Sequence record: PQ571288.1
From: Escherichia phage EC3-1
Strand: one strand, 5' to 3'
Length of the DNA stretch: 44,405 nucleotides
This document shows, one piece after another, positions 3,717 through 4,074 of the stretch. The translations under genes and the position numbers were made by a program. Every line of letters starts with the position of its first letter. Position 1 is the first letter of the stretch. The notes beneath the pieces were generated by a model, which did not search any database, was not told the origin of the DNA, and saw nothing but the letters and a program-made list of their open reading frames with translations.

Positions 3717-3743
3717 AAAAAAAGAAAGGGGCGTTAAGCCCCT
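3709..3743 (-). terminator. Rho-independent terminator after the XRE gene (stem AAGGGGC/GCCCCTT, loop GTTAA)
   Basis: Hairpin 3725..3743; A run 3709..3719 on plus equals a U run after the hairpin on the minus transcript. Confidence 0.55.
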
Positions 3744-3949
3744 TCACCCAACGCCAGCCACTTGGCGTCTACTTGCAGCACTTCCGCCAGTTTAAACAGC
3801 GTCGCCGGGCGGACGTCCTGAGTTACCCCGAGCGCAAGCTGGTTAATTGCGCCCTGGGAAACGCCGGCCAGGACAGCCAGACGGCGCTGGGAGATGCCGA
3901 GTTCTTTGCGGCGTTGTTCTACACGGATGCCTAGTTCAGATGGTTGCAT
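3734..3949 (-). CDS. XRE-family (Cro/CI-type) HTH transcriptional regulator
   Basis: LGISQRRLAVLAGVSQGAINQL is a classic XRE helix-turn-helix; lone minus-strand gene inside the plus-strand module; RBS AAGGAG. Confidence 0.75.
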   Translation of the reverse strand: MQPSELGIRVEQRRKELGISQRRLAVLAGVSQGAINQLALGVTQDVRPATLFKLAEVLQVDAKWLALGEGA

Positions 3950-3965
3950 GTCAATTACTCCTTAG

Positions 3966-3994
3966 TTAGTTGATATGTGAATAGTACCATATTA
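3966..3994 (+). promoter_or_regulatory. Possible second promoter/operator: TTGATA, 17-nt spacer, TAATTA, containing GTGAATAGTACCATATT half-palindrome
   Basis: Lies in the divergent region between the XRE gene and the early operon; weak -10. Confidence 0.3.
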
Positions 3995-4013
3995 ATTATT
4001 TTAAAAAAGCCCA

Positions 4014-4042
4014 TTGACACGTGAATAGTTCGCTATTATAGT
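4014..4042 (+). promoter_or_regulatory. Strong sigma70-like promoter (type A): TTGACA, 17-nt spacer, TATAGT, with AATAG-TTCG-CTATT palindrome in spacer
   Basis: Consensus -35, 17-nt spacer and near-consensus -10, read directly; drives the gene at 4075. Confidence 0.7.
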
Positions 4043-4074
4043 TAGCCCATACCAAACGAGAGGAGAGAAACAAA

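Follow-up and report, generated by a model that had tools for sequence, protein, structure and literature searches.

A 434 Cro-like regulator as a candidate genome-wide feedback repressor in the Kagunavirus Escherichia phage EC3-1

Background

Why does a phage in which no integrase is found keep a repressor-type gene, alone on the minus strand of an otherwise rightward replication module? The question is raised by Escherichia phage EC3-1 (sequence record PQ571288.1), whose 44,405-nucleotide sequence, taken at its full length, is referred to here as the window. The gene at issue, at 3734..3949 on the minus strand, is an open reading frame (ORF) of 71 amino acids for a helix-turn-helix (HTH) protein of the XRE/HTH_3 type that resembles the Cro protein of phage 434; we call it the regulator. 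From comparison of sequences we propose that it may serve as a genome-wide feedback repressor acting through a repeated 14-bp palindrome, AATAG-N4-CTATT, a reading to which we give a probability of roughly 0.6.

The window is a complete genome of a Kagunavirus (subfamily Guernseyvirinae). Both its first 25 kb and the region 3000..5000 find matches in hundreds of Guernseyvirinae phages, and the best-matching genomes are those of Kagunaviruses of E. coli, at 88-94% identity. Together with the Jerseyviruses, these phages are among the commonest small siphoviruses isolated for biocontrol of E. coli and Salmonella, and the BASEL Kagunavirus isolates now serve as laboratory models. Safety screens often take the "transcriptional repressor" gene of both genera as a sign of a temperate lifestyle. 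A regulator of this kind is already annotated in hundreds of related phages, and many GenBank records label the gene "Cro", "transcriptional repressor" or "DicA-like". A literature search on the repressor regulon, pseudolysogeny and promoters of Guernseyvirinae turned up only generic annotations and one report of a motif found with PHIRE; in the literature searched we found no experimental work on the regulator gene or the repeated motif. Gene-essentiality data from another study (PMC9825161) were set aside as irrelevant here, the phage concerned, seszw, being a Skatevirus.

Results

A Cro-like DNA-binding domain under strong purifying selection

The regulator matches the Pfam family HTH_3 (PF01381) over residues 11-65 with E=1.2e-12 and 48.1 bits (curated cut-off 23), matches HTH_19 and HTH_31 as well, and is recognized by PHROG families of transcriptional repressors and regulators with E values down to 6e-11. 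The original prediction, made from the sequence alone, had named a profile search as a check on its HTH assignment, and the assignment passes it; the label Cro/CI-type is likewise borne out, as the best solved relative is phage 434 Cro (the top match in the Protein Data Bank (PDB), phmmer E=1.8e-6), followed by the DNA-binding domain of the 434 repressor and by P22 C2. The Cro protein of phage HK446 is identical to that of 434, and the regulator is 43% identical to it over the full length of both proteins, each of 71 amino acids. A single-sequence AlphaFold2 model (pLDDT 85) contains five helices, at residues 5-17, 21-28, 32-39, 48-58 and 62-67, with the predicted recognition helix, SQGAINQL, at 32-39. 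When this model is searched with Foldseek, 2CRO comes out on top (TM 0.70-0.76), and HipB, the 434 repressor and SinR are among the other top matches; the modelled fold is a five-helix bundle in which helices 2 and 3 would form the helix-turn-helix.

Among more distant homologues, from viral contigs and phage-plasmids, are CI repressors of full length (268-305 amino acids) that carry an S24 peptidase domain; these share with the regulator the signature D-A/P-R/K-W-L-A-x-G-E that ends the HTH domain. On the strength of this homology and shared signature we place the regulator in the Cro/CI family of DNA-binding proteins, reduced to the DNA-binding domain: it stops at residue 71, directly after the HTH, and so has neither a C-terminal oligomerisation domain nor an S24 autocleavage domain.

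An orthologue is kept in every Guernseyvirinae genome examined, and the regulator is the only DNA-binding protein common to the four complete Guernseyvirinae genomes compared. Synonymous polymorphism (pS) across 35 distinct Kagunavirus alleles is 0.22 and non-synonymous polymorphism (pN) is 0.013, a pN/pS ratio of 0.06; the gene is under strong purifying selection. Each of 37 Kagunavirus loci retains an intact ORF, Shine-Dalgarno sequence and terminator, and intact operators.

A divergent control region with two operator-like sites

The rightward replication module extends from 634 to 12844 on the plus strand, both in a crude gene map of the window and in the annotations of phages Schulenburg, fFiEco03 and Jersey. 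Within these limits every credible gene lies on the plus strand with the sole exception of the regulator, and the annotated relatives are alike in this, in agreement with the original prediction that it is the only minus-strand gene of the module. The terminator of its own that had been ascribed to the gene is also present: at 3716..3745 on the minus strand a G+C-rich stem of 8 bp (GAAGGGGC/GCCCCUUU, at 3745..3725), with the regulator's stop codon in its loop, is followed by nine U, and a terminator is annotated at the corresponding place in Schulenburg. Since on the plus strand the hairpin has no U-tract, it should work on the minus strand only. At the other end of the gene, a Shine-Dalgarno sequence, TAAGGAG (3958..3964, minus strand), can be read 8 nt upstream of the ATG at 3949, and it is invariant in the aligned relatives.

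Divergent from the regulator stands the predicted rightward promoter TTGACA-17-TATAGT (4014..4042, plus strand), which matches the consensus at 11 of 12 positions, as had been claimed; only three promoter-like sites in the genome reach this score, and its hexamers are conserved in all Kagunavirus loci. The operon downstream, from 4075 onwards, contains a 58-amino-acid ORF, a 166-amino-acid protein of family phrog_3127 and a nuclease. Two candidate operators lie in this region, where palindromic half-sites had previously been noticed. O1, AATAGTTCGCTATT (4024..4037), falls within the spacer of the rightward promoter and is perfectly palindromic, and O2, AATAGTACCATATT (3980..3993), has one mismatch and lies over the -10 element or the transcription start of the regulator's own predicted promoter; GTGAATAGT is present both at 3977 and at 4021.

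For the regulator itself, matches to the consensus give two weak promoter candidates on the minus strand. One arises from the mismatch in O2, which on that strand yields an extended -10 element, TGgTACTAT, at 3989..3981 (TG at 3989..3988, TACTAT at 3986..3981); the other is TTCACG-16-TAAAAT at 4025..3998 (9 of 12). Of the overlapping divergent promoters originally described, then, the divergent arrangement stands, but with the regulator's promoter only weakly predicted the overlap is not established, and under the extended -10 reading the two promoters would lie back to back instead of overlapping. In Jersey, reading the sequence by eye, we find AATAGTACAGTAAT at the position of O2, within a promoter of the form TTGCGT-17-TACTAT.

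A footprint alignment of upstream regions shows what is conserved here; its loci, 36 of Kagunavirus and 10 of Jerseyvirus, were picked for their position, without regard to the motif. In the 36 Kagunavirus loci the half-sites of O1 are invariant, its central 4 bp take six forms, and the 3-4 nt between the -35 hexamer and the operator vary in both sequence and length. O2 is nearly invariant (37 Kagunavirus loci).

The original prediction likened this region to a genetic switch. The divergent layout with its operator-like palindromes bears out the likeness, but a bistable switch between two repressors is unlikely, because no conserved Cro-like partner is encoded downstream of the rightward promoter. 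The 58-amino-acid ORF at 4075..4251 was considered for that part and rejected: it belongs to no Pfam or PHROG family, and it is absent from Jersey and from many Kagunaviruses. No second, cI-like repressor gene was found in the window, whether in the gene map, among the relatives' homologues of its ORFs or in Pfam and PHROG scans of sampled ORFs.

Although the regulator is indeed a lone minus-strand gene, its position is best explained by a rearrangement next to it. In the relatives Salmonella phage SE1 (locus L004, 4112..7002) and Serratia phage Tsm2 (L005, 6799..9567), the regulator is co-oriented with the helicase-primase gene and lies upstream of it, heading its operon; in Kagunavirus and Jerseyvirus the regulator and the helicase-primase block are on opposite strands, and the terminator follows directly after the regulator. 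Given the layout in SE1 and Tsm2, the simplest reading is that the neighbouring helicase-primase block was inverted and the regulator left in the ancestral divergent arrangement.

The palindrome is the most over-represented in the genome and overlies predicted promoters

All palindromes with arms of 4-6 bp and spacers of 0-10 bp were enumerated across the window, and AATAG-N4-CTATT proved the most over-represented, with 8 perfect copies against 0.041 expected. Allowing up to one mismatch gives 12 copies against 1.04 expected, a number reached in none of 100 shuffles. It is again the top palindrome in fFiEco03 (7 copies), and the top palindrome of Jersey is TAATAG-N4-CTATTA (4 copies); copies with at most one mismatch number 7 in Jersey and 4 in Tsm2, against 1.25 and 0.37 expected. 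Although about 87% of the genome is coding, seven of the eight perfect copies fall in non-coding DNA; seven perfect copies, as well as O2, end 30-62 nt upstream of a start codon (counting the site at 184, whose gene spans the junction of the contig).

Apart from O1 and O2, six perfect copies overlie predicted promoters of sigma-70 type ahead of the first gene of an operon, so that the hint in the original prediction of other promoters carrying this motif extends to at least six further promoters around the genome. Two of these belong to the replication module. The copy at 6760..6773, in the spacer of TTGACA-17-TATAGT (6750..6778), lies 62 nt upstream of a DUF2815 (SSB-like) gene and is conserved in Kagunavirus and Jerseyvirus; that at 10322..10335, in the spacer of TTGACG-17-TATAGT (10312..10340), precedes the gene at 10374 by 39 nt. 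Both corresponding positions carry an annotated promoter in the Jersey record. In the three replication-module promoters, at 4014, 6750 and 10312 (11, 11 and 10 of 12), the site takes up the spacer, and its last base is also the first of the -10 hexamer.

At the four other promoters it is the -10 hexamer that lies inside the site. Three of them read TTGCAC-17-TACTAT: a leftward one (site at 184..197), which would drive the first leftward early gene across the contig junction; a rightward one (site at 23364..23377, 41 nt upstream of a superinfection-immunity gene at 23418); and a leftward one (site at 43039..43052, 30 nt upstream of the gene starting at 43009). The fourth, rightward, reads TTGTAG-17-TACTAT, and its site, at 32544..32557, precedes the gene at 32591 by 34 nt; on the opposite strand the same site falls in the spacer of TCGATA-17-TATAGT (32567..32539), which points to the spanin and capsid genes. 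At all four the asymmetric flanks of the site (GTG...AT) are inverted relative to transcription, and a similar leader (...cgaaacgaga-GGAG...) follows both classes of promoter. Because the dyad is found with two registers and in either orientation with respect to the hexamers, we regard it as an independent protein-binding element and not as a part of the promoter.

Two further copies are placed differently. A copy with one mismatch at 39780..39793, downstream of the lysis genes, overlaps the -35 hexamer of a leftward TTGACT-17-TATATT (39788..39760); Kagunavirus and Jerseyvirus both conserve it, its counterpart in the Jersey record is annotated as a promoter, and it may be a weaker operator. 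The remaining perfect copy, AATAGTAACCTATT at 43197..43210, has no recognisable promoter and sits between a gene end at 43217 and a terminator at 43183..43162. In relatives, tandem GGTGTAACAGGT repeats precede this copy, and these may be the binding site of another factor.

A BLAST-anchored comparison of the sites outside the regulator's control region, in both genera, again gave conserved half-sites and a freer centre, at a resolution limited by the good conservation of the surrounding intergenic DNA itself. Of the seven motif sites in Jersey, five coincide with sigma-70 promoters annotated independently in its GenBank record.

At 544..592 two promoter-like sequences stand back to back with their -35 hexamers almost fully overlapping (leftward TTGACA-16-TAAAAT, 11 of 12; rightward TTGTCA-16-TATTGT, 9 of 12). 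Within the rightward one, AATAG-N11-CTATT at 570..590 was considered as an operator and rejected, its spacing being wrong for the same dimer.

Linking the palindrome to the regulator

What suggests that the regulator binds these sites is, to begin with, where they are: two copies lie within its own divergent control region, and O1 is placed as OR2 is in the spacer of the 434 PR promoter (a layout seen in phage HK446). In the 434 proteins, a glutamine of the recognition helix contacts the outermost adenine of the operator. Here the outermost operator base is an A, and the first residue of the predicted recognition helix, Q32 (the equivalent of Q28 of 434 Cro), is invariant in four aligned Guernseyvirinae lineages. 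The operators of 434, too, are 14 bp long and are conserved in their outer bases, with the centre free to vary (Anderson, Ptashne and Harrison; PDB 3CRO). In a distant relative with a differing recognition helix (locus L052), the promoters, including the regulator's own region, carry AATAC-N4-GTATT, and no AATAG-type site is found there. Taken together, these likenesses make it fairly probable that the AATAG-N4-CTATT sites are bound by the 71-amino-acid regulator.

Proposed mode of action

In the mechanism that we propose, a dimer of the regulator would bind the 14-bp palindrome and block RNA polymerase wherever the site overlaps a promoter. Occupation of O1 would shut the rightward promoter and turn down the operon that opens the replication module, and occupation of O2 would restrict the regulator's own synthesis, a case of negative autoregulation. 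As the protein accumulated it would fill the other copies as well and turn down most of the non-structural transcription units: beyond its own control region, the likely targets are two promoters in the replication module, two leftward early or middle promoters, and two small rightward "island" operons, one of which includes the superinfection-immunity gene. That repression would be genome-wide is suggested by the fact that operators overlie the promoters heading nearly every non-structural transcription unit. In lytic growth the regulator would thereby curb early and middle transcription or switch it off, doing a Cro-like job without a CI partner. Timing of the early-to-middle transition was one of the two roles first suggested for it, and we rate it most plausible that the regulator times or limits transcription in the early and middle phases, with putative operators at its own and at least six other promoters.

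The terminator may have its own place in this scheme, as it would keep the regulator's transcript from running antisense into the helicase-primase gene. Being one-directional, it should let rightward transcripts of the upstream operon cross the regulator gene antisense, and such read-through could damp the regulator's expression early in infection.

Gene content bearing on lifestyle

The original prediction held that the phage has no integrase, no excisionase-attP pair and no partition system. For integrase and partition this agrees with our searches: among annotated relatives' homologues of window ORFs longer than 145 amino acids (every such ORF with a homologue) there is no integrase, recombinase or Par protein, and among the remaining ORFs a sample scanned against Pfam and PHROG gave no integrase, recombinase or partition family, adding only an HNH endonuclease, NinH and the superinfection-immunity protein. 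With respect to excisionase the statement needs amending, since a gene of an excisionase-type family is present: at 634..813 on the plus strand, a 59-amino-acid protein of HTH_17 (PF12728, phrog_66; excisionase/MerR-type) heads the rightward operon that contains the helicase-primase. By its family it is a predicted second small DNA-binding protein in the genome. A Kagunavirus RNA-seq study (PMC12645636) lists a gene annotated helix-turn-helix domain as the only functionally annotated "early" gene, and this is apparently the homologue of the gene at 634..813. In a paper on a Jerseyvirus (PMC9409062), a predicted excisionase (recombination directionality factor) and an Ant-type antirepressor were flagged as temperate-like functions.

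Discussion

Weighing the alternatives

Several observations count against genome-wide feedback repression by the regulator. The tie between protein and operator is circumstantial. The Jersey regulator is only about 50% identical to that of EC3-1 and differs at four recognition-helix positions, and its operator is unchanged; SE1 and the relative at locus L054 have hybrid half-sites; Tsm2 carries the motif at other promoters and not upstream of its own regulator gene; and several lineages show no clear dyad, so that covariation of recognition helix and operator across Guernseyvirinae is weak and only suggestive. The TTGCAC-17-TACTAT promoters match the consensus at only 8 of 12 positions, and their assignment draws on conservation, position and the shared leader. 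The promoter pair at 544..592 is without a properly spaced operator, in a region unique to EC3-1. In the one RNA-seq time course published for a Kagunavirus (PMC12645636), a gene annotated specific DNA binding, apparently the regulator's homologue, was put in a broad "middle" class, the time classes being too coarse to date its expression. The regulator might therefore act locally only, on its own and the adjacent rightward promoter, or on DNA of the host or of competing phages, with the other copies bound by a different factor or spread as a duplicated promoter module. The cases of Jersey and Tsm2 speak for this, as does the early second HTH protein encoded at 634..813, and the promoter-operator-leader units, which share the GTG flank, ATAGTT and the leader "cgaaacgagaGGAG", fit duplication of a module. 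But two copies lie exactly where an autoregulated repressor needs them, the two registers and orientations are not those of a fixed part of a promoter module, HTH_17 was not found in Tsm2, which carries the motif, and a perfect 14-bp dyad with a variable centre suits a dimer of the 434 type. A purely local regulator seems to us unlikely.

The remaining alternatives concern lifestyle and the nature of the motif. If the regulator and its operators silenced the whole genome, the phage could enter a carrier state (pseudolysogeny), non-integrated and either non-replicating or plasmid-like. The operators do cover replication, early and lysis-proximal promoters, the gene sits in a divergent, CI-like position with a putative autoregulatory site, and CI repressors of full length, with S24 peptidase domains, are among its homologues. 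The only direct hint of such a state is CP088689.1 (locus L086), a complete circular Kagunavirus of 44,086 bp deposited as "plasmid pC16EC0033-2" from a clinical E. coli blood isolate in Korea, with a regulator 95.8% identical to that of the window. Phage carry-over in culture would explain this record equally well, however, and it is the sole one of its kind among 72,556 plasmid records (PLSDB); no prophage or chromosomal copy was matched in 5,426 RefSeq complete E. coli genomes. Moreover, no partition, integrase or plasmid-replication module was found, genome papers on relatives report no integrase or lysogeny genes and treat the phages as lytic, and the regulator is without the cooperativity and cleavage domain of maintenance repressors. 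We therefore think a carrier state improbable; were it real, phages deemed strictly virulent and proposed for therapy could persist silently as non-integrated episomes. Much less credible again is the second role first suggested for the gene, that of a remnant of a temperate ancestor in the sense of a non-functional, decaying relic. That no integrase is found and that the protein is a CI/Cro-family domain are compatible with such an origin, but the selection measured across the 35 alleles, together with intact expression and operator signals in all 37 Kagunavirus loci and orthologues kept across the subfamily, is against decay. Least probable of all is that the motif marks promoters of a phage-specific RNA polymerase or sigma factor and has nothing to do with the HTH gene. 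In fBC-Eco01, PHIRE found seven copies of tgAATAGTa-ccTATTat-T, labelled as phage-RNA-polymerase promoters (PMC9825357); we reject this reading because no gene for an RNA polymerase or sigma factor occurs in the window's gene map or in the annotated relatives, and the sites, perfect dyads in two registers and orientations, lie within ordinary sigma-70 -35/-10 pairs. The annotation in fBC-Eco01 is probably wrong.

Genome layout and further observations

Positions 1..141 of the window are identical to 44265..44405, a terminal direct repeat of 141 bp that leaves 44,264 unique bases and identifies the sequence as a circularly closed contig; the first leftward early gene (MNKATASVVSAIKEVYG..., about 72 amino acids) straddles the junction. 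In the crude gene map and the three annotated relatives, the minus strand carries the tail and head genes, and a long leftward arm holds small early genes, the lysis genes and the terminase. A homing endonuclease with HNH_3 and AP2 domains (24774..25244) is inserted in a small rightward operon that also holds the superinfection-immunity and metallophosphoesterase genes.

Near the left end, the non-coding segment 150..355 is almost 100% conserved in 33 Kagunavirus loci, and the adjacent 360..650 is unique to EC3-1. Bases 200..360 fold unusually well (plus strand -52.6 kcal/mol, z -3.3; minus strand z -3.0), and an Rfam scan of 1..4300 returned nothing credible. The segment 150..355 lies immediately upstream of the leftward promoter at 184 and might encode a small RNA or act in cis, for instance as an origin or packaging site. 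The hairpin GCCCCGCTTTATGGCGGGGCTTTA is present twice: at 32252..32229 (minus strand) it follows the spanin gene as a terminator, and at 462..485 (plus strand) it lies in the early divergent intergenic region.

Implications

Feedback repression by the regulator, if it holds, would reduce to a simple wiring diagram of one Cro-like protein, one 14-bp operator and about eight promoters, and would account for the conservation of a repressor-type gene in a lytic phage. The operator-bearing promoters would then be strong, compact, repressible cassettes of possible use in phage engineering. The regulator itself is of an ordinary, well-known kind and reveals no new mechanism; its distinctive feature, which we find modestly interesting, is the spread of a putative operator over most promoters of a virulent phage.

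Comparison with known systems

Controller proteins of restriction-modification systems and XRE antitoxins (C.AhdI, HipB, HigA) have a similar size and fold and appear among the Foldseek matches. Unlike them, the regulator has no adjacent restriction-modification or toxin gene; its neighbours lie on the opposite strand, and it is monocistronic, with a terminator after its stop codon. The pseudolysogenic phages of Cutibacterium acnes likewise combine a repressor-type gene with the lack of an integrase, although the phages and their proteins are unrelated to those considered here. For some integrase-less, repressor-bearing phages of this sort a carrier state is reported (PMC12426086). In the records searched, no genome-wide operator set comparable to that of the window turned up.

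Closer are the CI-type repressors (the N-terminal domains of 434 cI and P22 C2, and S24 LexA-like proteins), with which the regulator shares a homologous HTH domain, the C-terminal HTH signature, and a gene divergent from an early lytic promoter with a putative lower-affinity site over its own promoter. It differs from them in its total length of 71 amino acids, with no C-terminal oligomerisation or autocleavage domain, and in its setting, in which no lysogeny module is found and which the genome descriptions of the group treat as that of lytic phages.

The nearest counterpart is 434 Cro (PDB 2CRO, 3CRO, 1ZUG): it has the same length of 71 amino acids, 43% identity and the top structural match to the predicted fold; the first glutamine of the recognition helix is conserved; the operator, putative here, is in both cases a dyad of 14 bp whose outer bases are conserved and whose centre varies; and, like 434 OR2, one site falls within the spacer of a rightward TTGACA-17 promoter. 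By analogy, the likely role is that of turning down early promoters in lytic growth. The differences are nevertheless substantial. Whereas 434 cro heads the PR operon and opposes a divergent cI, the regulator of EC3-1 is itself the divergent gene and forms a monocistronic unit closed by a terminator of its own; neither cI nor cII, nor an integrase, nor a conserved partner was found in this phage. Its half-site is AATAG where that of 434 is ACAA, its control region has two sites where that of 434 has three, and, in contrast to the 434 operators, which are confined to OR and OL, its putative operator is spread over at least six other promoters.

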